Shown piece by piece: positions 6,213 through 28,709 of a DNA stretch of 31,139 nucleotides (its first letter is position 1; every line of letters starts with the position of its first letter). Made by a program: the position numbers and the translations under genes. This DNA is from a virus (Duplodnaviria > Caudoviricetes), in IMG/VR virus record IMGVR_UViG_3300028767_000071, positions 1-31,139 of that record; one strand, written 5' to 3'. The notes beneath the pieces were generated by a model, which made no database searches, was not told the origin of the DNA, and saw only the letters and a program-made list of their open reading frames with translations.

Positions 6213-6332
6213 ATTGTAGCATACACGCAGTAAGGGTTTAAATGGTACTTCCCTATCTGTCAGCGATAAATTTACAAGTACCTATAATGTTGGCAAACCA
6301 GTGCTACCCTTATTGCCGGGTATGCGAAGTTA
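6209..6332. repeat. attC-like hairpin H1
   Basis: TAAC..116 bp..GTTA; arms GCATACACGCAGTAAGGGT / ACCCTTATTGCCGGGTATGC. Confidence 0.85.
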
Positions 6333-6353
6333 TTGCCAGTTTACATTTCAGTC

Positions 6354-6935
6354 ATGTTTGAAGATTTAAAAGAAGATTTTATTGTCGAATTTGGAGAGGA
6401 AAACTTTAAAAAAATTGAGTCTATTTTAGACTTATTTGAAAGCGAACCTTTTTGCGATTTTGAAAAAGACGGAATTACTGTTTCGTGTAGCCGTGAAAAG
6501 ATAAATCAACTGCAAGAAAATGTATGTGTTTCTATTTCGTGCGATGATTTTGACATTGAATTACTTTATGAAAATGGGATCAACGCAGGAACCAGATTGA
6601 ATGAGTATAGAATAAATCCAGCATCTTCATTTGTTAATGATAAACGCGAATACGAAGTAATTACAGGTATTGAATTGGATATTGATGCTATAGATAGATG
6701 GAGTGCAATGACTGGTAAAGAATATTCACTCCAAAAAGCTGAATTTATGCTTATCAATAATCGTGATTCAATTTTGAAATTAATCAAAAATCAAAATTAC
6801 GATAATTATGTAACTGGTGGAGGCACGACAAAGACAGACCGCTACTATGATCAGAAAAAGTCTGAATTAAACGAACGTGGTCTTTTTTGGAAAGTCAAAA
6901 CGCGAACAGAAGTAACCACCGCGAACTTTTTTTAA
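6354..6935 (+). CDS. cassette 1 cargo: acidic hypothetical protein
   Basis: ATG 6354 preferred to TTG 6333; flanked by IR GTTATTGCCAGTTTA (6329) / TAAATTGGCAATAAC (6933-6947). Confidence 0.8.
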   Translation: MFEDLKEDFIVEFGEENFKKIESILDLFESEPFCDFEKDGITVSCSREKINQLQENVCVSISCDDFDIELLYENGINAGTRLNEYRINPASSFVNDKREYEVITGIELDIDAIDRWSAMTGKEYSLQKAEFMLINNRDSILKLIKNQNYDNYVTGGGTTKTDRYYDQKKSELNERGLFWKVKTRTEVTTANFF

Positions 6936-6943
6936 ATTGGCAA

Positions 6944-7067
6944 TAACGGTTCGTGTATGGGTAGTGTGGGAGTACGAAGCACTACCCTATCGAATTACAA
7001 ATAACTTAAATACGAGATACAATGATTGAACAACCACAAAAACCCACATTACCTATACACGGTGTTA
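6944..7067. repeat. attC-like hairpin H2
   Basis: TAAC..116 bp..GTTA; 19-bp stem CGTGTATGGGTAGTGTGGG / CCCACATTACCTATACACG with 2 G.T pairs. Confidence 0.9.
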
Positions 7068-8140
7068 TGCACAGGTTTTCTTATCGTTGGACTTTAAAAG
7101 ATGCCAACTTTACAAAGGATAAAGGTAAAGTGTTTAGTTGCTTTGCTTGTGGAGGTGGCTCAACTATGGGTTATAAATTGGCTGGTTTTGATGTGATAGG
7201 ATGCAATGAAATTGACCCTAAAATGATTGAAGCATACAAAGCAAACCACAACCCTAAATATGCTTTTTTAGAACCAATACAGACCTTTAAAATGCGTGAA
7301 GATTTGCCGCAGGAACTTTATGAACTGGATATATTGGACGGTTCACCACCTTGTAGTAGTTTTTCAATGGCTGGTAACCGCGAAAAAGACTGGGGCAAAG
7401 ATAAAGTTTTTAGAGAAGGTCAGGCGATGCAGGTTTTAGATACTTTGTTTTTTGATTTTATTGATTTGGCTAAGAAATTACAGCCAAAAGTTGTGGTTGC
7501 TGAAAATGTAAAAGGCTTGCTTTTAGGCGATGCAATACAGTATGTGAGACAAATATACCGTGAATTTGATTTGGCTGGTTATTATTGCCAACATTGGTTA
7601 TTAGATGCTTCAAAAATGGGTGTACCACAAAGGCGCGAAAGGGTATTTTTTATTGCATTGCGTAAAGATTTGGCAAAACCTTTTTTAAAGCAAATGAACT
7701 TGTTTGATATTTTGCCAGAAATAAAACTGGAATTTAATGAACCTGAAATATGTTTTAAAGAATTTGCAGATTACGAAGGCGAAAATATTACAGAATATGC
7801 AAAAAAAGCATGGGATAACCGAAAATATGGGGATAACAATATTGCAGAAAGTAAAGCAAGATGTGGAATGAAAGTAAGCGATATGAATACAGGCTATGTT
7901 TATGAAGATAAAGTATGCCAAACATTAACTGCAAAAGGTAGGCATGGAAGTTTATTATTTTCAAAACCTATTAGACTTTCAAAGGCTGAATTTTGCAATG
8001 TTGGAACATACCCACAAGATTATGATTTTGCAAAAACTGGATGGGGCTATTTAATTGGAATGAGTGTTCCACCAGTAATGACTGCAAACATAGCGACTGA
8101 AATTTATTTGCAATGGCTCTCAAAGTTGGCACTGTCTTAA
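7022..8140 (+). CDS. cassette 2 cargo: C5-cytosine DNA methyltransferase
   Basis: FACGGG (motif I), SPPC (IV), ENV (VI), QRRER (VIII); start 7022 or 7067; IR GTTATGCACAGGTTT (7064) / AAACTTGTGCATAAC (8139-8153). Confidence 0.95.
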   Translation: MIEQPQKPTLPIHGVMHRFSYRWTLKDANFTKDKGKVFSCFACGGGSTMGYKLAGFDVIGCNEIDPKMIEAYKANHNPKYAFLEPIQTFKMREDLPQELYELDILDGSPPCSSFSMAGNREKDWGKDKVFREGQAMQVLDTLFFDFIDLAKKLQPKVVVAENVKGLLLGDAIQYVRQIYREFDLAGYYCQHWLLDASKMGVPQRRERVFFIALRKDLAKPFLKQMNLFDILPEIKLEFNEPEICFKEFADYEGENITEYAKKAWDNRKYGDNNIAESKARCGMKVSDMNTGYVYEDKVCQTLTAKGRHGSLLFSKPIRLSKAEFCNVGTYPQDYDFAKTGWGYLIGMSVPPVMTANIATEIYLQWLSKLALS

Positions 8141-8187
8141 ACTTGTGCATAACTTGTTTATATCAACAGTTTAATAAATTAAACCAT

Positions 8188-8421
8188 ATGCAACTTACTG
8201 AGTACGAACAAAAAGCAATTCATAAACTCGGACAGGCTATACACGAAGGCCGGTGGAGTAATGCTGGGTTGGTTGAACTTATTAAACTGGAAGGAGATTA
8301 TCTAAATTTAAAGACGATACCCAGATATGCAAAATCTGTTGGAAAGACTTATCCGGGTGTTGTTAAAACGAGAGAAATAACAAATTTATTTGATGTTAAG
8401 TGGATAATTGACAACGATTAG
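8188..8421 (+). CDS. small putative HTH/excisionase-like protein at array right end
   Basis: 77 aa from ATG 8188; paralog of 28710-28943; LKTIPRYAKSVGKTYPGV looks like an HTH. Confidence 0.7.
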   Translation: MQLTEYEQKAIHKLGQAIHEGRWSNAGLVELIKLEGDYLNLKTIPRYAKSVGKTYPGVVKTREITNLFDVKWIIDND

Positions 8422-8464
8422 AAAGGTTCAACAATGGCCGTTTTCAACCTATTAAATTTTCAAC

Positions 8465-9121
8465 ATGAGCAATAAACCGAAACTTTGTAAGTGGACTCTT
8501 GAAAAATGCGATGAAGAAAGAGTAAACTATCCAGGCAAATCTATTCTTTCTCCTTATTGCCATAGTCACTTAATTTCAGCTACCTTGATTAAAGTTAGAT
8601 CCACAAAAGAGCTAAATAAAACTATTCGAGCTAAAAATAAGGAAAACAAAGAAAAAACGATTGAATTACTTACCACTGATAGATACCGGAAAAAATACGT
8701 TCAGCCTATTTTTAATGAAATTGCCAGATTGATAGATTATAATCAGCCATGTATTGCTACCGGAAACTATAAAGGCAAGATGGCCGGAGGACATTACCAT
8801 TCTGTTGGATCTAATCGTACAATTTGCCTAAACCTTCACAATATCCACATTCAGAGTTTTCAAAGTAACGGGCCAAAAGGAGGCGATAATATCAAATATA
8901 GAGAAGGTATCATCAAAACGTATGGATTACACTATTTGGAACAAATTGAGGCTCTATCGTTAATAAAACCGATTAAATTAGACAAATCAGACCTAATGGA
9001 TATTAAAATACATGCATCAGCTATCAAGAAACAGTTAAAAAAGGAATTAAGGGTGAGAACACCGGATGAACGAATTAATTTAAGGGAAGTAATAAACAAT
9101 CAAATTGGAATATATAAATGA
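8465..9121 (+). CDS. ninG: NinG/Rap-family recombination endonuclease
   Basis: IARLIDYNQPCIATG...GGHYHSVG...NIHIQ...N pattern. Confidence 0.8.
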   Translation: MSNKPKLCKWTLEKCDEERVNYPGKSILSPYCHSHLISATLIKVRSTKELNKTIRAKNKENKEKTIELLTTDRYRKKYVQPIFNEIARLIDYNQPCIATGNYKGKMAGGHYHSVGSNRTICLNLHNIHIQSFQSNGPKGGDNIKYREGIIKTYGLHYLEQIEALSLIKPIKLDKSDLMDIKIHASAIKKQLKKELRVRTPDERINLREVINNQIGIYK

Positions 9122-9285
9122 AAATCAAAACTGTCAAATCGTTAATTAAGATATTGGATGAAATCTCAAAAGTTGATAGGGATGAATTGAAAGGAATTAA
9201 GTCAGAAGAACAGTATGATTTAATTGGTGTTGTCCGTTCATCAATTCAAAACGAACTTTCAGAACTCAAAGAATTGTCAAAATGA
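9118..9285 (+). CDS. small hypothetical protein (55 aa)
   Basis: MKIKTVKSLIKILDEISK...; ATGA overlaps on both sides; not in the ORF track. Confidence 0.6.
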   Translation: MKIKTVKSLIKILDEISKVDRDELKGIKSEEQYDLIGVVRSSIQNELSELKELSK

Positions 9286-9479
9286 AAGTCTGGTACTGCA
9301 CCGAGAAGCGTTTCATCAACCGAATCATCAAGCGATGGAAACGGGAAGGATTCAACTACAATGCCGGACACGTTCAGATTTTAACTTTTGCCTTTCGTGC
9401 CGTTCTTTACTGGTCTTCAGTAGAACATCAAAAAGTTTCAGAAACAAACAGATTAAAAAATAACCTTAAACTATTCTAA
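9282..9479 (+). CDS. small hypothetical protein
   Basis: Coupled to both neighbours. Confidence 0.6.
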   Translation: MKVWYCTEKRFINRIIKRWKREGFNYNAGHVQILTFAFRAVLYWSSVEHQKVSETNRLKNNLKLF

Positions 9480-9480
9480 A

Positions 9481-9663
9481 ATGGCAAAGAAAACATTTGC
9501 AGTTCACTTTTGGACTGGATATACAACGAATTTGGGATGTGGAGATATGGTTGTAACACTTTGTGAGAGATATGTTGAAAAACAAAAAAGTCGATTCACT
9601 ATCGATAAAAGTAAAGTTACTTGTAAACTTTGTTTGTCACGACATAAATTTCAAAAGCTATGA
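9481..9663 (+). CDS. small protein, possibly Zn-binding
   Basis: H...C...VTCKLC pattern. Confidence 0.6.
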   Translation: MAKKTFAVHFWTGYTTNLGCGDMVVTLCERYVEKQKSRFTIDKSKVTCKLCLSRHKFQKL

Positions 9664-9878
9664 AGGGTTTAAAACTAATATTTATATCGCAAATTAACCG
9701 GGACGGAAGCGGAACAACTCCGGTTAATCCAGATTATATACGAACTTTAGAGAAAGATGATTTTAATTTAAATTGTCTTTCAATAACAGAAAATACTTAT
9801 ATCGCACACGGTTTTAATTCGTATGTGGTTAAACTAAAAAATGAAAAGCATTGGCCGTTTAAACTTTCAAATAAATGA
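9660..9878 (+). CDS. small hypothetical protein
   Basis: ATGA overlap with the previous ORF. Confidence 0.6.
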   Translation: MKGLKLIFISQINRDGSGTTPVNPDYIRTLEKDDFNLNCLSITENTYIAHGFNSYVVKLKNEKHWPFKLSNK

Positions 9879-9943
9879 AACTTTTTAAATTACCCTTTCG
9901 TATTAATGCCAAGTAAATGATTTTTTTCATACTTTTAGGTTTT

Positions 9944-9987
9944 ACTACCATGTTTTATTTGATTGATTGAGCGTGGTAGTTTTTTTT
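9944..9987 (+). terminator. possible intrinsic terminator
   Basis: ACTACCATG / CGTGGTAGT stem with a large loop, followed by a T run. Confidence 0.45.
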
Positions 9988-10062
9988 AAAAACTTAAGTT
10001 TGTTTTATTCAAAAAGTATTCTGATATTTGTCTTACAAATTAGAAGCACCCATCAGAGAAAG

Positions 10063-10192
10063 GGGAAACTGACTTTATAAAATGTGATTATTGGAGGCCA
10101 TATAAGCTACCGGAAACGCTGTTTGATCCGGGGTAAATAGCGAGGGACAGTCGATGTAATCAAGAATAAAAAAAGTTAGTAGAAGGTTTCCC
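10063..10192 (+). ncRNA. candidate structured RNA
   Basis: ORF-free, GC-richer region with nested complementary segments. Confidence 0.3.
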
Positions 10193-10207
10193 AAAGAATG
10201 TACAGAT

Positions 10208-10240
10208 AAAAGCCCCGGATAACGTGTCCGGGGCTAATTT
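10208..10240. terminator. GC hairpin, probable terminator (U tail on the - strand)
   Basis: AGCCCCGGA-7nt-TCCGGGGCT preceded by an A run. Confidence 0.6.
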
Positions 10241-10315
10241 AAAAGGGTTTAATTTGTGTTTGATCATTGCCGGTACTTCCGGCTAATTTTTACTGAATTT
10301 TTGTTAAATAGTAAC

Positions 10316-10477
10316 ATGAAGAAGATTAAGACAAAAGATATTGATTCAACCAAGCTGATTACAAAATCAGAATATGCAAAACAGATAAAGTCCAACCCTG
10401 TTCAAGTTCAGAGAATGATTGATCAAGGGAAATTGACTGTAGTTGTTGCAAAGGGTGCTGAATTAATACATCTTTAA
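10316..10477 (+). CDS. small HTH DNA-binding protein (excisionase-like)
   Basis: LITKSEYAKQIKSNPVQVQRMIDQGKL; ATG 10316. Confidence 0.65.
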   Translation: MKKIKTKDIDSTKLITKSEYAKQIKSNPVQVQRMIDQGKLTVVVAKGAELIHL

Positions 10478-10545
10478 TTTTTTTGACTTAAATCGTTAAT
10501 TATTAACATTGTAAATATAGTTTTTTAACCATTAAATTTTAACAC

Positions 10546-10971
10546 ATGGGTAAACCATTATTTCAAGACGTACCGGAAGATCGGAGAGTATTAATGTTGT
10601 CTGACAATGCTGAAAGTATCGAAGAAATTGGATACATGAAGCCATTTACCGAAGAAGAGATCCTTTTTATGAAAGATGATCTTGCTGAAGTTTCAATTGA
10701 TATCAATGAGATTGAAATTGAAAAGAAAGAAGTTGCTGCTGAGTTTAAACACAAACTCGAACCTCTCACATAACAGAAAAAATCTATTCTTTTAAAAATC
10801 AAAAACAAAGCTGAACATGTAAAAGAAGAATGCTTCAAGTTTATTGACTATGAAAACCAGATTGTTTCTTACTACAATTCAAAAGGTCTTGAAATCGAAA
10901 CAAGACGAATGAGGCCGGACGAAAAACAGTTGAAAATTTTCCCAATTGGTAAAACGGGAACAAATAATTAA
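10546..10971 (+). pseudogene. phage protein interrupted by in-frame TAA at 10771-10773
   Basis: Frame stays open for 65 more codons to TAA 10969-10971, 2 nt before the next ATG. Confidence 0.75.
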
Positions 10972-10973
10972 TC

Positions 10974-11769: not shown

Positions 11770-11787
11770 CTAATAAAAATTAAACTA

Positions 11788-14180: not shown

Positions 14181-14188
14181 TATATTTG
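14181..14188 (+). promoter_or_regulatory. putative -7 promoter element directly upstream of array 2
   Basis: TATATTTG matches Bacteroidetes TAnnTTTG. Confidence 0.4.
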
Positions 14189-14191
14189 TCA

Positions 14192-14265
14192 TAACGGGCA
14201 AAGTTTATACGGGCTGCAAAGCTCGAAAACCACGGTTGCCTGACTTGCCGGGTTAGCCAAAGTTA
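14192..14265. repeat. truncated attC-like element H3
   Basis: TAAC..66 bp..GTTA; right half resembles H6, left arm missing. Confidence 0.6.
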
Positions 14266-14304
14266 TTTGCCGTATTTCATTACTAATCACTAAAATAAAT
14301 AAAG

Positions 14305-14652
14305 ATGTCAGTAAAAATTTATTCAAGTTTCAACATGGGTGGGATGCCAACCCTTGAATATTCGATTAACATTAATGGGATTTCAATTGGTATTAAAAAA
14401 GAAGATTTTGACTCTTTAGTTAAAGAACTAGGAACTTCAATATCTGAAGATTTGGAAAAAGCAAAGTCAGTGAAAGAAAGCTACTGGAAAAATGTAGAGA
14501 AGTTGCAAGAACTAAGGAAAGAAATAATATCTATTTTCTGGGATGGAGAGCCTGATGACGATTATCTATTTAAAAAAGAGTCAAAGGAAATTGATCAAGA
14601 AAAGCTTTTCGAGATTTTGGAAAAGCACAATCGCTTCTTAGGATTCGAATAA
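14305..14652 (+). CDS. cassette 3 cargo: hypothetical protein
   Basis: IR GTTATTTGCCGTATT (14262) / AATATGGCATATAAC (14651-14665). Confidence 0.8.
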   Translation: MSVKIYSSFNMGGMPTLEYSININGISIGIKKEDFDSLVKELGTSISEDLEKAKSVKESYWKNVEKLQELRKEIISIFWDGEPDDDYLFKKESKEIDQEKLFEILEKHNRFLGFE

Positions 14653-14661
14653 TATGGCATA

Positions 14662-14786
14662 TAACGTAGGAAGCTACACGCAGTTTGGGATTACGAGCGA
14701 AAGCCTGTCAAGCCCCGACAGCGTAAATACGAAAAGAAAGCCTTGAATAACTTTCATACGCCCAAATTGACGGGTAGCTGAAGTTA
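14662..14786. repeat. attC-like hairpin H4
   Basis: TAAC..117 bp..GTTA; arms GCTACACGCAGTTTGGG / CCCAAATTGACGGGTAGC. Confidence 0.85.
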
Positions 14787-14838
14787 GTGGTTAGTGCTTT
14801 CATAGTCAAATATTTAAAACTAATTAATAATCAATAAA

Positions 14839-15228
14839 ATGTCAACAGAAACACATCAAATTACAGTCGCAAAATGCGAAGAAGAAGAACTCGACAATGT
14901 AAGAACGTATCTACAAGAACTTGAACAAGTTGTCAACGAGAATGACGGTTACGATGAAGATGATTCTGAAGTGAATAAAGAAATTGCTGATGTAGCAAGA
15001 AAATATCCAAACAGAGCTTTCATCGTTCCATTGAATTTAGGAATCCTTCTCGACAACTACCAGGATAAAGACTCAGATATTTTGAAGCATCCAAAGTGGA
15101 TAATGAATCTTTTCAATGTCCTCGAAGAAATTGACGAATATCTGTCAAGTAACCCGAAAAACTATGTCGGTAGCGGGTCAATTCTGCACACTAAAATAAA
15201 GAACTGTCTGTCGAAAGATGCGAAATAG
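14839..15228 (+). CDS. cassette 4 cargo: acidic hypothetical protein
   Basis: IR GTTAGTGGTTAGTGCT (14783) / AGCATTACCACTAAC (15227-15241). Confidence 0.8.
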   Translation: MSTETHQITVAKCEEEELDNVRTYLQELEQVVNENDGYDEDDSEVNKEIADVARKYPNRAFIVPLNLGILLDNYQDKDSDILKHPKWIMNLFNVLEEIDEYLSSNPKNYVGSGSILHTKIKNCLSKDAK

Positions 15229-15237
15229 CATTACCAC

Positions 15238-15361
15238 TAACGTTTCCGCTATGCGTAGTGCGGGATTACGTGGTACGCACTATCAAACTACGCAAAGCCT
15301 ACGAGCGAGGCAGGACGCTCGATATTACGAATAACCCCGCATTACGTATGAGCGGGTGTTG
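15238..15361. repeat. attC-like hairpin H5
   Basis: TAAC..116 bp..GTTG; arms CGCTATGCGTAGTGCGGG / CCCGCATTACGTATGAGCG. Confidence 0.9.
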
Positions 15362-15385
15362 TACGCCGTTTTTATTCTTAAAACT

Positions 15386-17569
15386 ATGGATTATACTCAA
15401 TTTTTAAACACAAAACACAAAAGCATTATTCATTCAGGATTTGAAATAAATGAAACTAAATTAAATCCGATGCTTTTCGATTTTCAGAGGTTTACCGTAA
15501 AACGTGCTTTAAAGGCTGGTAAATATGCGATTTTTGCTGATACTGGACAAGGCAAAACTCCAATGCAGTTAGATATTGCGAACCAAGTTTTTAAATACAC
15601 AAATGAACCAGTTTTAATTTTAGCACCTTTGGCAGTAACAGGGCAAACAATTGAACAGGGATTGAAATTTGGAATAGAAGTAAAAAGGCTTTCGGGAAAT
15701 ATACAGATAGCCAATTATGAGCAAATTGATAACATAGATTGTAGTTTGTACGGTTGCATAATTTTAGATGAAAGTTCGATTTTAAAAAATGAAACAGGAA
15801 AATATAGAAATTTACTTATTGAAAAGTTCAAAAAAACACCTTACAAATACTGCTTTTCAGCTACACCAAGCCCAAACGACCCTATGGAATTAGGAAACCA
15901 TGCAGAATTTTTAGACGTTATGGGATTTTCAGAAATGCTTGCAATGTATTTTGTACATGATGCTGGAGAAACGCAAAAATGGAGACTTAAAGGGCATGCA
16001 GTTGAACGATTCTATGAGTTTGTTAGTTCATGGGCAATTATGTATTCGCACCCAAGGGATATAGGATTTGAAATGAATGGATTTGATTTGCCCGAACTTT
16101 CGATAATTGAAAAACAGGTTGCAACTACATTACCGGAAGGTATGCTATTTTCGGGATTGGCTGTAAATGCTACCGATTACAATTCAAGTTTACGAGAAAC
16201 AGAATTAGAACGCATTAACCAAACTTTAGAAATTGTTAAAAGTATTGGATTTAACGAACCGATAATTATTTGGACAAAGCAAAATGATGAAGCAAAAAAC
16301 ATATACAACCATTTAAAATTGCTTGGTTATGATTGCCGAAACGTGCAAGGTTCAGATTCAAATGAAAAGAAAGAAGCTGATTTATTAGGATTCGGGCATA
16401 ATGAATTTCAAATACTTATTACAAAACAATCAATTGCAAGTCAAGGATTGAATTACCAAAATTGCGCTTATCAGATATTTAATTCAGTTGATTTTAGCTT
16501 TGAACAAAGCTACCAAGCCATGAGGCGTTCATGGAGGTTTGGACAAAAAAGAAAAGTAACATGCTGGATGATAACAACCGACAGAATGATAAATGTTATT
16601 AAAATACAGCAAGATAAACACCTTTCATTTAAAACTATGCAAAGTGAAATGACGAAGGCAGTTAATAAAAATTTACTTAACCAAATAACAACTAAAAACA
16701 TGAATAGTGAAGATGTTAAAACAGAATTTTACCATTTAATGCGTGGGGATTGTGTTGAAAAATCAAAAGAAGTTGAAGAAAATAAATCGGATTTGATTAT
16801 ATTTTCGCCTCCATTTAGCGAACTTTACACATATTCGAGTCATGTTGAAGATATGGGCAATTCAGCAAACTATAACCAATTCGAGCAACATTTTAAATTC
16901 TTAATTCCTGAACTAAAAAGGATTTTAAAACCTGGGCGTATTTGTGCTATTCATTGCATGGATTTACCAATACAAAAAGGAAAAGAAGGATATATTGGTT
17001 TAAGGGACTTTTCGGGAATGTTGATTAAATGGTTTCAGGATTGCGGATTTATTTATCACAGTCGGGCAACAATATGGAAAGACCCTGTAATTGAAATGCA
17101 GCGAACTAAAGCACTTGGATTGCTGCATAAACAAGTAAAAAAAGATAGTGTAATGAGCCGTGTTGGAATACCTGACTATATTTTATTTTTTAGAAATGAA
17201 GGCGAAAATACAATACCAATTACAAATACAAATATACCAGTTGATTTGTGGCAAAAAATAGCTTCGCCAGTTTGGTATGATATTGATTATTCAAGAACTC
17301 TGAATTATAGAGAAGGTAGGGCGCAAGATGACGAGAAACATATTTGCCCGCTTCAACTTGATACGATTGAAAGAGTAATATTGCTTTATTCAAATGAAGG
17401 CGAAACGATTTTCAGCCCTTTCGGAGGAATTGGCAGCGAAGGTTATCAAGCGTTGAAAATGAACCGTAAAAGCATTTCAATTGAGCTTAAAGAAAGCTAT
17501 TTTGAATTGAATAAACGAAACCACAATGCAGCCAAAGAAGAAAAAGGACAATTAAAATTAGCATGGTAG
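15386..17569 (+). CDS. cassette 5 cargo: SNF2-like helicase fused to an N4/N6 (beta-class) DNA methyltransferase
   Basis: DTGQGKT, DESS, SATP, RRSWRFGQ; then FSPPF and SPFGGIGS; IR GTTGTACGCCGTTT (15358) / AAATGGCGTACAAC (17594-17607). Confidence 0.9.
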   Translation: MDYTQFLNTKHKSIIHSGFEINETKLNPMLFDFQRFTVKRALKAGKYAIFADTGQGKTPMQLDIANQVFKYTNEPVLILAPLAVTGQTIEQGLKFGIEVKRLSGNIQIANYEQIDNIDCSLYGCIILDESSILKNETGKYRNLLIEKFKKTPYKYCFSATPSPNDPMELGNHAEFLDVMGFSEMLAMYFVHDAGETQKWRLKGHAVERFYEFVSSWAIMYSHPRDIGFEMNGFDLPELSIIEKQVATTLPEGMLFSGLAVNATDYNSSLRETELERINQTLEIVKSIGFNEPIIIWTKQNDEAKNIYNHLKLLGYDCRNVQGSDSNEKKEADLLGFGHNEFQILITKQSIASQGLNYQNCAYQIFNSVDFSFEQSYQAMRRSWRFGQKRKVTCWMITTDRMINVIKIQQDKHLSFKTMQSEMTKAVNKNLLNQITTKNMNSEDVKTEFYHLMRGDCVEKSKEVEENKSDLIIFSPPFSELYTYSSHVEDMGNSANYNQFEQHFKFLIPELKRILKPGRICAIHCMDLPIQKGKEGYIGLRDFSGMLIKWFQDCGFIYHSRATIWKDPVIEMQRTKALGLLHKQVKKDSVMSRVGIPDYILFFRNEGENTIPITNTNIPVDLWQKIASPVWYDIDYSRTLNYREGRAQDDEKHICPLQLDTIERVILLYSNEGETIFSPFGGIGSEGYQALKMNRKSISIELKESYFELNKRNHNAAKEEKGQLKLAW

Positions 17570-17651
17570 AATGCTAAATCGAAGCACGTCTTTAAATGGC
17601 GTACAACTTGTAAATATCCGCAACTAAATAGTCAAAATACCAATAAATTTA

Positions 17652-20879: not shown

Positions 20880-22583
20880 CTAAGGATAAATTACCGCATA
20901 TACAGCGTCTTTCAATTTTTTATGCCCTGCCGTGTGTGGGTGTACTGCATTTGCAAAATCATCAGGATAAGTAAGAATTGTTTTCCCTACGATATGAGTG
21001 CAATAAGTTGATCTTGCTGTACACAATGAAGCTATACGAGTGCGGTAATCATCAAGTGTTGCGTCTTCTTTTGCGTCACCTCTTATAAGTGGACTCAAAC
21101 AAAATACCTCAATAGTTGCATCAAGTGTGTGAATAGCATCCAATAAGGCCGCATAATAACCCTCAAAAGTTGCAGCTGCTGTATTTGCGACACCCCAATC
21201 GTTAGTAGCTGCCTCAATTAGTACAATTTTTCGAGTTGTTGTAAGGGCAAATAATGAAGTCAAATATCCTATTGTTCTGGTGACAAGTGGAGATGTGCCT
21301 GCAAAATGTTTTATTTGACCAAAACCAAATCCCAAAGAGGCAATATTTTTACTATTTTCAATTTCAAAAAGTCTTACAAATCCCTGCGTTTCAGGTATTG
21401 TTGCAGCATCACTCACAGAAATTGAATCGCCAATACATACCAGTTTTTCAGGATGTGACACCTCGTTTATTTTTGTGATATTCTTACACTTTACCGATGT
21501 CAAAAATGTTCCCACAACAGAATCAAATCCTGATACACCCGCCTGAGTACCCTCCATTAAGGTAACTTTTTTATTACCGACAGGAAGGAATATAATTTTT
21601 TCGGTGAAAGCATATAGATAATATTGTGCAAAATATACATTATCAATAAAGACGGTAAGCAAAGAACTCCCAGAACCACCTAGTTGCAACGTGGGGTTTG
21701 CTTTGATCAAAATATTAGTATCGGTCGTGTAAAACTCATATTTGGCAAATGCCATTTTTCTTTTATATGTAGTTTCATCCTTATAATCAACAGAATTAAG
21801 CATTATTCCATCATACTTTTCTTTGAGATTATAGGGTGAATCTTTCATTACTCCAAAATTGGTTGCATAACGTTCTTGCAAATAGTCCATTACTTGCATT
21901 TTTTCATATCCCGTATGCGCTCCTGAGTAAATTATTAATTCATAAAAATCGAAATTACAACAAGCTGTATCCAAGTTTGCATAACCACCTATTTCGATGC
22001 CTTTTGTAATATTGTTTGAGCCAACTGTTGTAGTAACCTTACTTGCGCCATTTCTAATAAATTCTGAAGTTGCAGCTCTAACCACCTGACAATAACAACT
22101 CAAATCGGTAGAATATGCTGTTTCGATCACCGCAGATGCACCAGCATTAATCCCAAATCTACCAACAGGGGTTCCACCCATAAGATAAATTAATGCAGTG
22201 TAAGGCGTAGCTGGTGTGCCACATTGCGCCCTGTCTGGTGTTGACGATAAAAACTTTGAAACCATGTAAATAGTATATGGTTGGGCGATTGTAAAAATGT
22301 CAGTTATCAACCTATTTTTCACCCCATTAAAAGTTATTTTATTATGCCCGTTTAAGGAATTTGCCGTAATAGTTGGATAATTATCAACTCCTGCACCAAC
22401 TGCATGATGATTGTTACCCTACAGGTCGGTCAACTGCGATGCCTTGCCCGATGAATCAACAACATCATCCGACCTTAACCACAATGCAAGGTTTGATAAG
22501 TCCGTTGGAACTATCGATGGATAGCTAATATTTGTCCCTAGTTTAACTACCCCCAAACCTATATGTGTGTTTATTCCTGGCAT
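20880..22583 (-). CDS. virion-associated SGNH/GDSL hydrolase with N-terminal beta-sandwich (LamG-like) domain; in-frame TAG at 22419-22421
   Basis: IGDSIS, TND, VHP..AGH; frame extends to ATG 22583 through LWLRSD...TDL*GNNHHA. Confidence 0.75.
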
Positions 22584-22584
22584 T

Positions 22585-22647
22585 TTACAGGGGTTTTAGC
22601 CAGTATTTAATAATGTCTGTCGCTGCTGTCTGAGTTATATTTTTCAT
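22585..22647 (-). other. 20-aa mini-ORF duplicating the C-terminus of the upstream gene
   Basis: MKNITQTAATDIIKYWLKPL versus ...VTQTAATDVICYYLKLL. Confidence 0.6.
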
Positions 22648-23224: not shown

Positions 23225-23298
23225 GATTGATGATTATTTAATGTTAAAAAAACACTATAAAAGTAAATATATTTTTTAAAGTATGTTATAAAGCACTA

Positions 23299-24042
23299 TT
23301 ATTTTTTTGCGTTGCTTTCATCATTATTATACACACATCTTGCTGATGAAGTTAAAGAACTCCAAGTAGTTGAATTTTGAACTTCTGTTATTGACGTACC
23401 ATCATTAAAATGAGTACATATAAAATTCTGAACAGTCCATACTTGAGAACCTATTTTTACTGTTGCATAAATATTACCGTCGTAATCTATTAATATACCA
23501 GGGTCTATTGAATCATCTTTTATTAATCTGATAGGACATCCCTGAACCTTAAATATTAATGCCTGCCATCCAAAATATGATGAATTATAAACAGCGGCCT
23601 GACAACAATATGCGTAAGTTGCATCGTAGCTATTTGAAGCCCATAAATAACAAACCTGATTTATTCCTGAAAACGAACCTGTTTCATTTCTTAATCCGGT
23701 ACCTCGAAGAACATAGTTATATCCATTCGTTGCGCCAGTATTTGGCGAATTCCAATAATCATATCCAGTTTCTTTAAGCTTACCTCCTGCGTAATTTGCA
23801 CCACCTAATGTCAAGCCAAGTGCATAAAATTCTAATCTAGTAGGAACATGCCATCCAACCGGAGCAATACTTGCTCCTCCAGTGCTGTAAGTTACTGCAT
23901 ACCAATTATAAAGATATCCATATTTTACTGGTGTAATTTGCTGTTCTTGTGGGTAACTCCAAAAAAAGTTAGAATATTGTTGACAGTTACATGATGAAAT
24001 AATCATCAAAAAAAATACAGTTAAAAAAAATATCTTTTTCAT
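23299..24042 (-). CDS. FISUMP (Fibrobacter succinogenes major paralogous) domain protein, circularly permuted
   Basis: YGYLYNWYAV, PVGWHVPT, AGGKLKETG, IRLIKD, DYDGNIYATVKIGSQVW; signal/lipoprotein-like N-terminus. Confidence 0.85.
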   Translation of the reverse strand: MKKIFFLTVFFLMIISSCNCQQYSNFFWSYPQEQQITPVKYGYLYNWYAVTYSTGGASIAPVGWHVPTRLEFYALGLTLGGANYAGGKLKETGYDYWNSPNTGATNGYNYVLRGTGLRNETGSFSGINQVCYLWASNSYDATYAYCCQAAVYNSSYFGWQALIFKVQGCPIRLIKDDSIDPGILIDYDGNIYATVKIGSQVWTVQNFICTHFNDGTSITEVQNSTTWSSLTSSARCVYNNDESNAKK

Positions 24043-24647
24043 TACCTTCCGTTTATGTAAATATTATTTCCTGATCTGTAATAGCTTGTAATATAAGTAC
24101 CTGAACTTTTTGATTTCAAAGTATTTGTGTGGGCATTAGTGATAGTTCCTAAAATGTTTGGTGAAACATTCAGCGTGTAACTCGACCCAACGATGAAAGT
24201 AACCACAGCGGCCCCGGTGTATGTTATTTCAATATTTCCAGTTTTTCCATTATTTAGATTTGAAAGCGTGATTGAAATATTTGTATTTGTTGAAATGTTC
24301 GCGTTTATGTGTGCTGAAACATTGTGAGTATAGTTAGTATTTGCCGTTGCAGAATATGGCGTTACATCTTGATCGGTTAATATTGTCAGTGTATCGCGAT
24401 TACTGTACCAAAGTGATGTATTTGTACAATAGATTGAATCGAGTTCGTTGGTATTGCTTAAGTCAAACTTATTCCATGCGTGTTGCCCCTTGAACATCCA
24501 AACAGCAGAATCAGCAGTATTGTAGTAAAAAATAGGATTGTTCGGAGCAATTAATTTTTTGATAGATGAATTTGGTAACGGACTTGCATTTTGCGAATGT
24601 GCAATGAATCCGACCAAAATAAATACAATTGTGAATAATTTTTTCAT
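24042..24647 (-). CDS. putative tail-fibre-related protein with signal-like N-terminus
   Basis: N/T/S-rich beta-type composition. Confidence 0.7.
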   Translation of the reverse strand: MKKLFTIVFILVGFIAHSQNASPLPNSSIKKLIAPNNPIFYYNTADSAVWMFKGQHAWNKFDLSNTNELDSIYCTNTSLWYSNRDTLTILTDQDVTPYSATANTNYTHNVSAHINANISTNTNISITLSNLNNGKTGNIEITYTGAAVVTFIVGSSYTLNVSPNILGTITNAHTNTLKSKSSGTYITSYYRSGNNIYINGR

Positions 24648-24648
24648 A

Positions 24649-25329
24649 TCAATTTTTTATTAAAATGTATCCTGAAATTAATTCGCCGGTTCCAGAAAAT
24701 AACACAGAATCTATTAATCCGTCAATTGAAGAAAGCGTTAACTGCGGATCAATAGGAAGTCTGGAATATTTACCTGCTTCAACAAATTGCCAGACTTCAA
24801 ACTGAGGATTTTGGCCGTAGTCCTGCATCGGGTTAAAAGAAACATTGTTTGAGTCTTCCAATGATTCTCTATAATTTGAAATTTCTGGGCTATAAACATC
24901 TGTAAATTCTATTCTCCGCCCGTTTGGATCATTGCCCCAAAGAACTGACATTGAAAATTTATTGTTATTGCTGACCGCAATTGGATGAAGTCTATAAAGT
25001 AGTTCGGTAGGAAGTAAAATAGAATATCCCTTATAAGCTGACTTGTGAACTATTCCCATTTTACCGGAAGTCGGGCAACCCTGTTTAAAAACGTCACTTA
25101 CTAATATCGTACCAACTCCGGTAGAAATAACTAAGTAAGGAACTCCGACAAAATCAGTGAAAGCGTAATCAGCATCTTTGAGATTAGCCCCAATATTATT
25201 GGTGTCAATTGCATTTACCTTTATTCCGTACGTTGCTGCGGTTAAAGGTGTTTCCCTGTCAATCTGATAAACTGATTGAGCAATTGTAAACCACGCCGAA
25301 GATGTATTATATTTCGATAAATCACTCAT
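24649..25329 (-). CDS. putative structural protein
   Basis: 226 aa, tightly packed in the operon. Confidence 0.75.
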   Translation of the reverse strand: MSDLSKYNTSSAWFTIAQSVYQIDRETPLTAATYGIKVNAIDTNNIGANLKDADYAFTDFVGVPYLVISTGVGTILVSDVFKQGCPTSGKMGIVHKSAYKGYSILLPTELLYRLHPIAVSNNNKFSMSVLWGNDPNGRRIEFTDVYSPEISNYRESLEDSNNVSFNPMQDYGQNPQFEVWQFVEAGKYSRLPIDPQLTLSSIDGLIDSVLFSGTGELISGYILIKN

Positions 25330-25331
25330 TT

Positions 25332-26009
25332 TTAGTTAAATATTAGTTCTACCCTCATAGGTAGCGGATTAGGTGCAAAACCTTCTATTAGCACTGTTAA
25401 ACCATTTCCTACAACTCCCGTATAAGCAGTTCCACGATCAAAGCTCAACATACGTTCAGCCGAACCGTTGATTTCAAATACTTTTATATCAACTATCTTT
25501 CTTCCGGTTAAATTATGAGTTACAAGTAAGTTGTAAGTATCATCAACCTCCAATGTCCATCCGGTAGGGTAGTCTGTTGTTTCAATTGCGGCGGATATTC
25601 TGGTTGCAACACTTCCAGAAGATGAAGTAAAGTTAATAGTATAAGGATTTTGTTTAAGTTTTAATAAGTCTTGAATAATTATATAGAGGGCGTTTGCAAA
25701 TCCCATAACTTCTGCGAGTGCATCCTCTACATTTTCAGCGTCAAAAATTCCGGCCAAATCAGCAAGCGTTACATCTTCTGCCTTGACGGTTGCAGGAAAT
25801 GTAACAGGTTCTAATGTTGTACAATCTGCTTTAAACCAATAAAGTTGATCAACAATAATTAAAGGCATAAATTTATGTCTTAATCCTATGTCAATTCCCG
25901 CCAACGCCTCAGCCTCCGAAGCCCACGGAACATTGTTATTTAGATATGCTTCCTGGATTGGTCTTCCGGTAGTTGATTTAAAACCTATGTCAATTGGTAT
26001 TCCTATCAT
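25332..26009 (-). CDS. putative tail/fibre protein
   Basis: AENVEDALAEV resembles phage fibre helical motifs. Confidence 0.75.
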   Translation of the reverse strand: MIGIPIDIGFKSTTGRPIQEAYLNNNVPWASEAEALAGIDIGLRHKFMPLIIVDQLYWFKADCTTLEPVTFPATVKAEDVTLADLAGIFDAENVEDALAEVMGFANALYIIIQDLLKLKQNPYTINFTSSSGSVATRISAAIETTDYPTGWTLEVDDTYNLLVTHNLTGRKIVDIKVFEINGSAERMLSFDRGTAYTGVVGNGLTVLIEGFAPNPLPMRVELIFN

Positions 26010-26026
26010 TGCTTAAAATTTATAGC

Positions 26027-27238
26027 TTAAAATTTATAGGTTAAAGTTAATAATGTTGCTGGTTCAGGTGCATAAGTTATAGGACAAACAAAAGTGTAAA
26101 TGTTCATTAATACACTGTTTGATCCAAAAGTAAAAGTCGCCTGTGTTTTTTCAAATGCACTCATAAGATCGTAAACGTTCCACATTAAAATACTTGATAG
26201 TTCCCCGAATGATGCAGGATAAGCAAAACAGTTTCGGGTTCCAAGTTCGTTATAATACTGGATTGTTGTATCTTCTTTAACGGCTAATAACTCAGTCATT
26301 GCCTTGACTTCTGATTCATAAGGCGGGTTATTTGTCACAGCACCGACATACATTTTAGTAGTGATATCCGGAATAATCGGATTTGATTCAATGATACCTA
26401 AATTATCAACATTAATACCGATAGCGTTCTTTTGTGATAGCTTCAGGGTTGCCTGAAAAGATGTTGAGTTTCCAAATAAAGTAGGGTCTATTTCACTTTT
26501 CTTAATATACTGAATACTATTAACTGTAAATAAATCCAAATTGCTTACCATCCCTATTTTAGCTATCATGTAATCCGGCACTGCTGCAATTTTCAATACT
26601 TTTCCTGTGTAGTATGATGCTGAAAGAATAGTATTGCTTTGTGAACCTTCGAGCACTTCTGATTTATCAATGTCGTTTACTTCTACATCCATCGCCTCGA
26701 TATAAAAATCAAGATAATTCCCGGTATTTGCCAATACAGACCAATCTATGAATCTATTATCTAAGTCTGATTCAATCCTATCAAGGTTTGAATATTTTAT
26801 GTATTTGATAGTTCCTTTGTTTATCTGTTCTGTCAAATCTGTGACTAAAACAGGTTCGCTGGTTAATACATCTGAACCCTGTATAGCGGTAAAATAGATA
26901 TGTTTGTCGAAGTAGTCAGAATCTAAAGTAACAACAAAATTAGTATAATACCTCATATTTGTTGATCCGTAATGCGAAGTATAACCAGCCGAAATACTTT
27001 CAATTTGTGTGATTATAGGAAGTTTATAAAATGATTTAAGTGTAATTGTCGCGTCTGTATCTGATTCAAATTGCAAGTAAAGTACATGGTTTTTATTAAA
27101 CTTTTGAAAATATGGAATTATCAAATTATTAGAGTGTTTTCGATCCGCATGTAGTGTATTCCACATATTTGGAAATTCAGTCGGATAGGTTGCCAACTTT
27201 TTAAATGTGACGCTATTTAATATTGAACTTGATATCAT
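26027..27238 (-). CDS. putative tail protein
   Basis: 403 aa in the late operon. Confidence 0.75.
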   Translation of the reverse strand: MISSSILNSVTFKKLATYPTEFPNMWNTLHADRKHSNNLIIPYFQKFNKNHVLYLQFESDTDATITLKSFYKLPIITQIESISAGYTSHYGSTNMRYYTNFVVTLDSDYFDKHIYFTAIQGSDVLTSEPVLVTDLTEQINKGTIKYIKYSNLDRIESDLDNRFIDWSVLANTGNYLDFYIEAMDVEVNDIDKSEVLEGSQSNTILSASYYTGKVLKIAAVPDYMIAKIGMVSNLDLFTVNSIQYIKKSEIDPTLFGNSTSFQATLKLSQKNAIGINVDNLGIIESNPIIPDITTKMYVGAVTNNPPYESEVKAMTELLAVKEDTTIQYYNELGTRNCFAYPASFGELSSILMWNVYDLMSAFEKTQATFTFGSNSVLMNIYTFVCPITYAPEPATLLTLTYKF

Positions 27239-27333
27239 TATCGAATGTTTTCACAAATTTATAAAATGTTTTCAAACATACGTTTATATTTGATAGTTAT
27301 TTTTATTGGTAGTAAATTGCAGACTTAAAATTC

Positions 27334-27360
27334 TTCACGAATATACCTTTTTGAACTAAC
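27334..27360 (+). repeat. array left-end sequence, copy 2
   Basis: Exact 27-bp match to 6186-6212. Confidence 0.95.
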
Positions 27361-27484
27361 GCTCGAGTGCTATGTGCAGGGCTGGATTTCGGGCGGTGTC
27401 CGTTATTTGTCAGCGATGCAGCCCGGGCGGAAAGGTAAGGCTCGAAAATCAGAACTGCCAGACTTGACACATAGCATCAAGTTA
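27357..27484. repeat. attC-like hairpin H6
   Basis: TAAC..120 bp..GTTA; arms TGCTATGTGCAGGGCTGG / CCAGACTTGACACATAGCA. Confidence 0.85.
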
Positions 27485-27512
27485 TTTGCCGTTTTTAATT
27501 AAATCCAATACG

Positions 27513-27887
27513 ATGAAACAAATACAATTCAAAGACATTTCAGTCAAAATTTATACAGATGCAGTCGAATATACTAACGACTGGTTTGGAATGCCTGAAG
27601 GCGCAATCTTAGACAAAAGTTCTGTTCCTGAAAGTGCGGGAATGGCAGATATTATAGGAAAAGAAATTGCAATTTTTACTACAAAACTTTGCTCTTTCGA
27701 CGACTTGTTATCTACCGTTGCTCACGAATTAGGACACTTGGTAGAAAATGGGTTTAAAAAGAATCCACCACAAAAACCACGATACGAAAAACGTCACGAA
27801 CTAAAAGCAGAACATTATGAGTCTTTCACAATTGATTCATATAGACTGTCACGCCAGATTTACGGACTCACGTTCAGCGAGCTTTAA
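27513..27887 (+). CDS. cassette 6 cargo: small HExxH zinc-metallopeptidase-like protein
   Basis: TVAHELGH plus a downstream E; IR GTTATTTGCCGTTTT (27481) / AAAATGGCAATATAAC (27886-27901). Confidence 0.75.
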   Translation: MKQIQFKDISVKIYTDAVEYTNDWFGMPEGAILDKSSVPESAGMADIIGKEIAIFTTKLCSFDDLLSTVAHELGHLVENGFKKNPPQKPRYEKRHELKAEHYESFTIDSYRLSRQIYGLTFSEL

Positions 27888-27897
27888 AATGGCAATA

Positions 27898-28021
27898 TAA
27901 CGGTGGTGGTATGAAATCGGTTGGGATTTCGAAGTACAACCATGTCAAGTTACAAAACACTTGCTACGGGCTACCAAGTTTGACAAACCACTAAAACCCA
28001 ACTGTTTTATACCACGTGTTA
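27898..28021. repeat. attC-like hairpin H7
   Basis: TAAC..116 bp..GTTA; arms GTGGTATGAAATCGGTTGGG / CCCAACTGTTTTATACCAC. Confidence 0.9.
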
Positions 28022-28058
28022 TACACAGGCATTTATTTAAAATTCAAATAATTACAAA

Positions 28059-28655
28059 ATGAAAACAATTAAAAACGACTATTGTATAAGACAATTTGTA
28101 AGCAGCGATACATTAAGACCTGCAATGACTAAAGTAAATTTACAGGATGGATATTTATATTCTACCGATGCCCATATAGTTGGGAAAATAAAAGCGGATT
28201 TGTGTGTTCAAAATTATACTGCTATTGAAAAATACCCAAATGCAGAAAAAGTAATTGAGGAACATGAATCGGTTGAAAAGAAAACAGTAAGCGTTGATAC
28301 TCTTTTTAACGACTTAATGAAAATTGAGTGCTGTTTTAAACCTAAAATGATTGATTGCGACAAATGCGATGGTGATGGCGTATATGTTTGCGACCATTGT
28401 AATTCTGAATGTGATTGCAAAGAATGTGGTGGAACTGGGCAAGTAGCAGGCAAAGAACTTGAATTAACAAGCGAACATGATTGCGTTTTATTTAATAAAA
28501 AATACAAACTGAATTATTTGGATTTAATTATTAAAACCGCAGTTTATACAGGCGTTAAAGAGATTGAAATTTCAAACGGTACTCACGAAACTTCGGTAAC
28601 TATTTTCACGGTTGGCGATTTCACTATTTTATTAATGCCGTGCTATCGTAGGTAG
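28059..28655 (+). CDS. cassette 7 cargo: beta-clamp-like protein with inserted CxxCxGxG zinc finger
   Basis: DTLRPAMTKV...STDAH, KYPN and C-terminal LLMP resemble DnaN; CDKCDGDG, CDHC, CKECGGTG; IR GTTATACACAGGCAT (28018) / ATGCTTGTGTATAAC (28663-28677). Confidence 0.7.
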   Translation: MKTIKNDYCIRQFVSSDTLRPAMTKVNLQDGYLYSTDAHIVGKIKADLCVQNYTAIEKYPNAEKVIEEHESVEKKTVSVDTLFNDLMKIECCFKPKMIDCDKCDGDGVYVCDHCNSECDCKECGGTGQVAGKELELTSEHDCVLFNKKYKLNYLDLIIKTAVYTGVKEIEISNGTHETSVTIFTVGDFTILLMPCYRR

Positions 28656-28709
28656 ACTCTTTATGCTTGTGTATAACTTATAAATATCAACAGTTTAAAA
28701 AATTAAACT

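Follow-up and report, generated by a model that had tools for sequence, protein, structure and literature searches.

A fixed T·G wobble in both halves of the sites flanking phage gene cassettes, a likely strand selector for an integron-like recombinase lacking I2

In the classical attC sites of integrons, conserved extrahelical bases direct the choice of strand (PMC2727003), and G:T pairs are more frequent on the folded strand, at 1.24 against 0.39 per site (PMC5027507; this and the other papers given by PMC number are cited from partial texts). Escudero et al. 2020 reported that I2 is necessary for cassette capture, and that I2 and single-strand recombination co-occur only in integron integrases, with intermediates lacking (PMC7790495). 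Here, we describe cassette arrays that adjoin IntI relatives without I2 and whose sites carry a likely alternative signal for strand choice at the level of single bases. The window, the whole 31,139-nucleotide stretch of IMGVR_UViG_3300028767_000071 (Duplodnaviria; Caudoviricetes; a bacterial virus), contains seven cassettes in three arrays (A, cassettes 1 and 2; B, cassettes 3 to 5; C, cassettes 6 and 7), with the following features.

6198–6212, +: target box upstream of array A, ending in TAAC, with T at position 11; not a cassette end
6209–6332, +: hairpin site S1 with a 116-nt inner part; inner wobble G6230·T6313
6329–6947, +: cassette 1, boxes and cargo; 200-aa ORF (6333–6935) of no family; outer wobble G6339·T6937
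6944–7067, +: hairpin site S2; inner wobble G6964·T7049
7064–8153, +: cassette 2; C5 DNA methyltransferase (7022–8140); outer wobble G7074·T8143
8143–8170, +: attI-like terminus of array A, made of the last right box, AAC, 7 nt and TA and not followed by a hairpin
14181–14265, +: upstream box of array B with the short (66-nt), degenerate site S3
14262–14665, +: cassette 3; 115-aa ORF (14305–14652); outer wobble G14272·T14655, with an additional T·T at position 6
14662–14786, +: hairpin site S4; inner wobble G14683·T14767
14783–15241, +: cassette 4; 129-aa ORF (14839–15228); outer wobble G14794·T15231 past a bulge on the GTT strand
15238–15361, +: hairpin site S5; inner wobble G15258·T15342
15358–17607, +: cassette 5; SNF2-type helicase fused to an N6/N4 DNA methyltransferase (15356–17569); outer wobble G15368·T17597
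17597–17624, +: attI-like end of array B (AAC, 7 nt, TA)
27346–27484, +: upstream box of array C with hairpin site S6, 120-nt inner part; inner wobble G27379·T27464
27481–27901, +: cassette 6; 133-aa ORF (27486–27887); outer wobble G27491·T27890 past a bulge on the AAC strand
27898–28021, +: hairpin site S7; inner wobble G27919·T28003
28018–28677, +: cassette 7; 198-aa ORF (28059–28655; phrog_37414); outer wobble G28028·T28667
28667–28694, +: attI-like end of array C, sharing homology with that of array A

The upstream target box of array A is also present at the start of array C, and S3, the 66-nt site ahead of cassette 3, is without the inner stem of the family. The hairpin and cargo start of cassette 2 recur in two other loci (L073 and L084) with other neighbours in front; the start of its ORF (7022) falls within S2.

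The original prediction placed a T·G pair at position 11 of the outer boxes, counted from the G of GTT, with cassette 4 as the only bulged case. The pair is present in all seven cassettes (ungapped in 1, 2, 3, 5 and 7), but cassette 4 is not alone, as cassette 6 too has a 1-nt bulge before the T·G; the extra base is on the GTT strand in cassette 4 and on the AAC strand in cassette 6. Among 104 distinct box pairs from 52 loci outside the window (one family, the counts not being independent events; three identical copies of the phage and locus L034 were excluded from all counts), outer position 11 is G·T in 96, T·T in 5, A-T in 2 and C·A in 1. The AAC strand thus carries T in 103 of the 104 pairs, and the swap to T·G never occurs. 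At the other box positions combined, five G·T stand against five A·C, and chance box pairs from 224 site-free loci gave G·T at position 11 in 4 of 73. Mutual information is 0.08 at position 11 and 1.3–1.9 at positions 5–9 and 12–14, bearing out the free covariation claimed for the neighbouring pairs, and a random mismatch position, which the original prediction had named as counting against it, is not what the larger set shows. Position 11 is not a covarying pair, and its T is more fixed than its G.

Pairing of the outer boxes extends over 14–15 bp with 74 distinct 6-nt cores among the 104 pairs, and does not follow the 7-bp GTTRRRY/RYYYAAC consensus (position 5: T 56, G 37, C 11; position 6: C 39, G 37, A 24). 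The box consensus may resemble the arms of dif. Bulged pairs carry the extra base on the G strand in 11 of 12, so that the distance from the T to the cut is kept. Of 161 native hybrid sites, 109 re-form the wobble irrespective of the neighbour. Upstream boxes that have no partner carry T11 in 34 of 41, many of them probably being missed cassette ends; several real array starts are without T11.

The inner hairpin holds a dyad-symmetric twin of this wobble, found in all six full-length hairpins of the window and as G·T in 84 of 91 sites of the family, with 56 of 58 for sites outside the seed pattern. A count of pairs gave G·U at the inner twin in 49 of 50, with 16 of 18 stem pairs covarying. In short hairpins detected independently of the profile, with only the outer box to orient them, the T is present in 34 of 39 and the pair is Watson–Crick in no more than 8 of 39; one scan pattern gave zero profile sites in its 37 loci. 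In both half-sites, the T at position 11 lies on the strand leading 5' to 3' into the spacer and is opposed by G (or T, C) and almost never by A. The spacer between outer box and inner stem is itself asymmetric: in 77 of 91 sites, 8–9 nt separate the core from the inner TA on one side and 6 nt on the other. Inner position 6 has a third G·T in 65 of 91, which lacks a counterpart in the outer box. We found no earlier account of the twin wobble in the literature covered.

A preference for G·T over A·C on the + strand had been claimed for the inner stems, which in the window alone is not significant (8 vs 2, p = 0.11) and in the family is clear (279 vs 55). However, 222 of the 279 lie at two fixed positions and the remaining 57 match the 55 A·C, so a diffuse bias is rejected in favour of an excess confined to fixed positions. 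The single bulges that had been noted do occur, in five of the six full-length window hairpins, but neither their position nor their arm is conserved: pairing is ungapped in 123 of the 162 hairpins of the family, and the bulged bases of these 162 sites are scattered (35 on the 3' arm, 20 on the 5' arm). Bulges were therefore rejected as equivalents of extrahelical bases.

When the junctions of the window were rebuilt, the + strand folded better in seven of seven, by −1.4 to −6.6 kcal/mol (DNA parameters). Random + windows lean likewise (−0.9 ± 1.6), so the folding energies of the window carry little weight alone and were rejected as proof of strand choice. Chromosomal junctions gave −3.6 kcal/mol against an opposite lean of +0.9 in cargo controls, and the AAC strand is favoured in 47 of 53 and 51 of 51 cases; the two strands do not fold equally well, the second outcome named beforehand as adverse. 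Phage genes lie on the folded strand in 32 of 33 and chromosomal genes on the opposite strand in 36 of 36, yet G·T is retained in 34 of 36 chromosomal cassettes despite the opposite transcript. The wobble tracks site polarity, not transcription. Relative to the classical attI-to-attC reading, genes are reversed in 7 of 7 window cassettes, whereas chromosomal arrays are classical (36 of 36). Since the wobbles follow site polarity while the gene strand varies, the + strand of the window is the equivalent of the attC bottom strand.

Together, the fixed mismatch position and the unequal folding support the central claim of the original prediction, that selection acts on a folded + strand as on attC bottom strands. 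Its mirror topology holds for the phage genes only, as the + strand, taken relative to the attI-like end and integrase, is the classical bottom strand. Of its "defined distortion", the fixed T·G stands; with T more fixed than G, distortion and base readout of the T are not told apart.

The mobile unit is a hairpin, a gene and a right box, joined at (T)AAC. Its boundaries were read from identical cassettes with different neighbours (twice in L141, and in L037/L062), which switch neighbours at (T)AAC on both sides; the AAC/GTT core is built into the site definition, and the exact bond is not resolvable inside the shared TAAC. The hairpin-less attI-like ends have TA at +8 and +9, after AAC and 7 nt, in 19 of 24; only 15 of the 24 have A (T on the other strand) at the equivalent inner base, with p = 0.02 if 40% A is assumed, which counts against the selector model below. 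Several of these putative attI sites directly precede the enzyme gene, the chromosomal layout being classical.

In chromosomal arrays, the attI-like end is followed on the same strand by an IntI relative of ~280 aa without the I2 insertion. Within 59 regions upstream of such short-integrase genes, 44 of 44 profile sites are on the integrase strand; 29 of 47 regions upstream of short integrases have no profile site, and recombinase and sites are linked by adjacency only. Candidate cognate enzymes are encoded, for example, at L141:7148–7984 and, in a phage, at L326:8053–8886. The catalytic R-K-H-R-H-Y is invariant in five of five recombinases. Around I2 the recombinase falls ~43 residues short of VchIntIA: residues 185–203 of the L141 enzyme align to VchIntIA 184–245. 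TIGR02249 matched four of four proteins in two stretches at 159–232 bits, below its cut-off of 265. The short recombinase type occurs in 92 of 301 genomes (~30%) sampled from the Bacteroidota group, the phylum of a Bacteroidales host. Neither the window record (61% complete) nor a 47,965-base copy of the phage that is 93% complete has a PF00589 match. The window arrays, being clustered sites with no integrase, are thus CALIN-like, of another system, and their sites are not classical attC.

A flanking gene retrieved only the three identical phage copies, hence no empty-site allele, and contigs of 4 of 24 sequencing runs, which can miss such forms, showed no cassette-skipping joint and no excised circle. 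Among the sequencing runs listed as containing the phage, none was of RNA. Site S5 had no blastn match among 50,697 GenBank phage records; the Polaribacter phage P12002L nonetheless has shorter members. An Rfam scan of the window had no match at the sites, with one chance-level snoRNA hit (E 0.89) elsewhere.

We judge it likely, with a probability of about 60% on the sequence evidence, that the fixed T·G in both site halves serves as a strand and fold selector for an I2-less, integron-like tyrosine recombinase. The + strand of the excised circle would fold, and the recombinase would cut the folded site at AA|C, the bond that IntI cleaves in attC bottom strands; the cassette would then be inserted at a double-stranded attI-like end (AAC, 7 nt, TA), with replication resolving the product. 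Each recombinase monomer would read a T ten bases from the scissile bond, and the non-A partner would keep the + fold paired as T·G, while neither the other strand nor unfolded DNA would then offer the T. With C·A at both positions of the folded − strand, and a C at the inner position plus too long a spacer in the unfolded duplex, only the folded + strand would be a good substrate. Such a T·G readout would replace the extrahelical-base mechanism of IntI with no need for I2, and the present phage, which encodes no such enzyme, would borrow that of its host or of another phage. In the duplex attI-like ends the outer T pairs with A, so that the geometry of a wobble would not be strictly required at those ends. 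Opposite the T, G greatly outnumbers T and C, which simple avoidance of A does not account for without a pairing or shape term.

This dominance of G among the non-A partners (96/104 outer, 84/91 inner) bears on the strongest competing explanation, which we think unlikely while giving it real weight: that the wobble is recognised by its shape, the recombinase docking a displaced or flipped-out T as a substitute for the extrahelical bases of IntI sites, with the second strand exchange possibly blocked as well. The surroundings are often loosened, position 10 being T·T in 31 of 104 pairs and the bulges clustering at G-strand positions 8–11, and the residue that contacts the extrahelical G (W157 in VchIntIA, R168 in IntI1; PMC2095811) aligns with an arginine in the L141 enzyme. 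However, in the attI-like ends the right box, which must still serve there, is fully base-paired with T-A, T·T and C·T substitutions exist, and the I2 helix that docks extrahelical bases is missing. Much less probable is a by-product of the making of cassette ends (for example one end copied from a template with a fixed primer or repair point) with no role in recombination. The gene-specific complementary ends, with 74 distinct cores, speak for it, but the symmetric wobble of the inner stem is inherited with the family rather than made anew for each gene, and mismatches are rare at other box positions. Selection on RNA structure or on a box-encoded protein, or strand-biased C-to-T mutation, is the most improbable, for although the folded strand is the sense strand in phages, some ORFs cross a box, RNA folding likewise favours that strand and the + strand of 1–18 kb is G-rich, the idea is already largely refuted by the orientation split (the chromosomal transcript is the other strand in 36/36, with G·T kept in 34/36), GTT is in the ORF frame in only 1/7 window cassettes, G·T equals A·C off the fixed positions (5:5 in boxes, 57:55 in stems), and Rfam gives no family match.

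Beyond the selector role of the wobbles, we tentatively entertain, at odds somewhat short of even, a living I2-less integron that shuffles single-stranded cassettes and whose strand code is a symmetric pair of T·G wobbles rather than extrahelical bases; its enzyme would represent the link so far missing from Xer to IntI, with phages drawing on the system through a separate, reversed cassette pool. If true, it would be a counterexample to I2 enabling single-strand cassette recombination. The two DNA methyltransferases of the window and the presence of the enzyme in 92 of 301 genomes suggest that anti-restriction and other accessory genes may travel between phages and hosts by way of this system. 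With the wobble rule, arrays that classical attC models detect poorly can be found and oriented simply.

The literature covered, with subscription papers largely outside it, described neither the wobbles nor a cassette system without I2. The available text of Smyshlyaev et al. 2021 (PMC8138268) assigns no substrate or cassette array to the insertion-less members of its "integron-like" subgroup. CTXphi and other IMEXs, which use XerC/XerD, share an I2-less recombinase acting on a folded single strand with one strand exchange only (PMC7790495); CTXphi uses one phage site at dif and the host Xer, whereas the present system has a cassette array and its own enzyme. The array of P12002L, handled as an ordinary CALIN by Qi et al. 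2023 (PMC9892861), is a member of the present family: its own-end boxes have G·T or T·T at position 11, P12002L_attC1 is a family hairpin, and the "bottom" primer for that site is the gene-sense strand. attC1 was the only one of six sites that IntI1, a non-cognate enzyme, failed to recombine, on a construct with only 7-nt outer boxes, and attC2, which IntI1 did recombine, is the reverse of the 3' end of the array (PMC9892861); wobble, long box, cognate enzyme and reversed polarity are not described in the available part of that paper.

With integron attC sites (VCR, attCaadA7) the family shares the AAC/GTT core, the AAC junction, a hairpin with an unpaired central spacer, cassette ends that are complementary in the circle, and a putative double-stranded attI-like site adjoining the integrase gene. 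The surplus of G:T on the folded strand is likewise common to both (PMC5027507), though diffuse in classical attC and here fixed and symmetric. The 7-bp GTTRRRY box of classical attC is matched by 14–15 bp with free cores, and, unlike classical attC, the present family is without conserved extrahelical bases; its integrase, unlike IntI, is I2-less, and its phage cassettes carry their genes reversed.

The window is a phage fragment, 61% complete according to its IMG/VR record, with genes for RecT, YqaJ, NinG and a helicase on the + strand up to ~18 kb and genes for lysis and structure on the − strand beyond; from the hosts of related sites, its host is inferred to belong to the Bacteroidota. 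Its seven cassettes are spread over three short arrays:

6212-8153, + strand, array A
14195-17607, + strand, array B
27360-28677, + strand, array C

Each cassette is delimited by its own complementary boxes (end repeats, the left starting with GTT and the right ending with AAC) and has upstream a YAAC...GTTR hairpin with an inner length of 116-120 nt (66 nt for cassette 3); two carry DNA methyltransferases. The arrays share one polarity, though array C lies on the + strand within the − strand structural module. Array C (27329-27360 and 28661-28973) copies both flanks of array A (6181-6212 and 8137-8451), comprising the upstream target, the hairpin-less attI-like end (AAC, 7 nt, TA) and a small ORF after it; arrays A and C are a duplicated platform, later filled with different cassettes. 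Many phage cassette ORFs begin within the upstream hairpin and run in frame through the left box (cassette 2, 6944-7080; several at 9397-11557 of L326, a phage locus), so that both the start codon and a short N-terminal peptide come from the site itself. Elsewhere, a 480-aa GDSL-domain ORF (20880-22322, − strand) has its GTG start directly behind an in-frame TAA and is preceded by what resembles further coding sequence (22322-22586, − strand); it may be a split gene or a case of read-through.

All seven cassettes pair T with G at position 11 of the box, counted from the G of GTT, as the original prediction stated, but five rather than six do so without a gap, cassettes 4 and 6 reaching it after a 1-nt bulge. 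Loci were gathered by scanning viral and genome collections with sequence patterns, and 60 genomic regions were added, of which 59 lie upstream of a related recombinase gene. The site profile, which spans only YAAC to GTTR and is therefore blind to position 11, matched 175 sites in 319 sequences. For the 166 outside the window, the best complementary AAC box was sought downstream by scoring Watson-Crick pairs alone, which biases the result against a wobble. A score of at least 12 was reached by 115 sites (shuffled boxes, 23/519); the 51 below it, many at locus edges, were left out. With duplicates merged, the 115 leave 104 unique pairs; these come from 52 loci and have 74 different 6-nt cores. 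At position 11 these have G·T (G on the GTT side) in 96, T·T in five, A-T in two and C·A in one, compared with G·T in 4 of 73 chance pairs from 224 site-free loci. Of the 104, 98-103 have Watson-Crick pairs at each of positions 4-9 and 12-14, which covary; T·T takes up position 10 in 31, and G·T and A·C are balanced elsewhere in the box (5 vs 5). The mismatch position is thus fixed amid covarying neighbors, and the wobble is real and strongly conserved. Beyond the original prediction, the T is more primary than its partner: it occupies the AAC strand in 103/104 pairs, and its distance to the cut is kept in 11/12 bulged boxes. The main exception to the rule is an ORF-less 124-bp mini-cassette (five copies in L224 6362-18846; also L230 and L238), made up of a symmetric hairpin of 88 nt and a stem of 36 nt, with A-T at position 11 of its own box and with a symmetric spacer. 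Within one chromosomal array it recurs, identical or nearly so, at many of the AAC junctions, and it looks like a selfish element of the cassette system.

The inner stems were likewise first read as favoring G·T over A·C. In 162 unique hairpins, aligned with equal scores for both, the counts are 279 and 55, yet the excess is not diffuse: 222 of the G·T pairs lie 10 and 15-16 nt from GTT, and the remainder are 57 vs 55. The single bulges also proposed as a stem feature are not conserved in the family. When the inner stem is numbered like the outer box, starting at a conserved TA that mirrors the one in TAAC, position 11 falls on the wobble 15 nt from GTT. Excluding 39 gapped stems and 32 lacking the anchor, it is G·T in 84/91 stems, with T in 88/91. 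The seed pattern set the G of this wobble and left its partner free; outside that pattern G·T is found in 56/58 stems. Among 50 aligned reference sites picked for diversity, it is G·U in 49, and 16/18 stem pairs change on both sides. An independent check used 38-121-nt hairpins found without the profile and oriented from the outer box only. Its 69 rows lost 7 to other pair types or window origin and gave 46 unique hairpins, of which 7 were too weak; in the remaining 39, inner position 11 has T in 34, G·T in 22 and a Watson-Crick pair in 8, and in 30 the AAC arm is longer by 2-4 nt. The inner wobble is present in all six full-length window hairpins. The hairpin site before cassette 3 (S3, 14196-14261) is without the family inner stem, cassette 3 nonetheless keeping the outer wobble, and is possibly a decayed or deleted site fixing that cassette in place. 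In the outer box the T is on the 5′ arm, in the inner stem on the 3′ arm, which gives the halves dyad symmetry about the spacer, the view that two tyrosine recombinase monomers would have. This symmetric twin is a second addition to the first reading; G·T is also frequent at inner position 6 (65/91 stems), without an outer counterpart.

Gene orientation was counted in unique cassettes at least 60% of whose length is taken up by an ORF of 100 aa or more. The gene lies on the wobble strand (the folded AAC strand, + in the window) in 32/33 viral and 7/7 window cassettes, and opposite it in 36/36 chromosomal cassettes, 34 of which keep the G·T; one chromosomal cassette slightly below the score cut-off has a + ORF. 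Because the gene strand flips between phage and chromosome while the G·T stays, the wobble tracks the site and not the transcript or protein. In rebuilt circle junctions the two strands do not fold equally: the wobble strand is better in 47/53 chromosomal junctions (mean −3.55 kcal/mol; cargo controls +0.88, better in 14/53) and in 51/51 viral ones (mean −4.48 kcal/mol; controls −1.31, better in 29/40). The proposal of selection on a folded + strand therefore holds. For attC, folding is known to be modulated by orientation relative to replication (PMC5371416).

Identical or near-identical cassettes with changed neighbors (L141, twice at 100%; L037/L062 at 100%; window cassette 2 vs L073 and L084) lose identity at (T)AAC on either side, and the mobile unit is hairpin, gene and right box. 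One public-run contig parts from the window precisely at 17607, where it passes into another end of the AAC, 7 nt, TA type. Across 24 hairpin-less ends (28677 and 23 chosen by eye from 32 rows, the other nine resembling overlooked hairpins or a false pair), TA is at +8,+9 in 19, and the two positions corresponding to T10 and T11 have A in 19 and 15.

Downstream of attI-like ends, chromosomes and some phages encode a recombinase of ~280 aa on the wobble strand. Profile sites occur in 18/59 regions upstream of its homologues, in 18/47 with ORFs of up to 310 aa and 0/11 with longer ones (one region unassigned), and all 44 lie on the enzyme's strand. The mirror topology first proposed is accordingly limited to the reversed phage cassette genes; the layout is otherwise that of a classical integron, with the wobble strand as bottom strand. 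The enzyme retains R-K-H-R-H-Y, scores best with XerA/integron-integrase models, under the IntI cut-off, and is without ~43 residues at the place of the VchIntIA insertion; the lack of conserved bulges in the family sites matches an enzyme without I2, the insertion helix specific to IntI. PF00589 has no match in the window record or in a 93% complete copy of the phage. Phage locus L326 (8053-11582, G308) has five cassettes, whose genes lie on the folded strand, and immediately after the attI-like end a 277-aa recombinase of its own; it is a complete phage-borne system.

Anatomy, covariation, fixed Ts with non-A partners, unit boundaries and adjacency to the enzyme are established. By analogy with IntI (PMC5027507, PMC2727003), the folded AAC strand would be cleaved at AA|C and then linked to an attI-like site in duplex form, with the resulting junction resolved by replication; the inner half-site has variable bases in place of the outer AAC, so a second exchange would be disfavored. 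T11 would be a base contact for each monomer. Recognition of the wobble's shape is a less likely alternative, as the same right box, where it forms an attI-like end, is a T-A duplex, and the T-to-cut distance is constant in 11/12 bulged boxes, both of which favor readout. For base readout of T11, to which we assign a probability of about 0.6, the G partner would keep the + fold paired, leaving the − fold with C·A and the unfolded inner half with C, so that the code would select strand and fold alike.

No publication on this cassette system or its wobbles was found in a search that extended to sources other than subscription journals and bioRxiv supplements. The array of Polaribacter phage P12002L, taken as a CALIN by Qi et al. 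2023 (PMC9892861), reads here as a member of the family (genome matched by eye to the published primers), and its true hairpin as the sole tested site unused by IntI1. The array (L219 29100-32400) extends past the two published sites: it has four short-hairpin cassettes, methyltransferase genes being present in three, and the genome has more family-type sites near 14505 and 39125. Escudero et al. 2020 (PMC7790495) describe I2 and single-strand cassette recombination as inseparable, with intermediates lacking. Unlike integron attC sites, the family is without I2, conserved extrahelical bases and the R-box consensus; what it would share with them is the mode of working.
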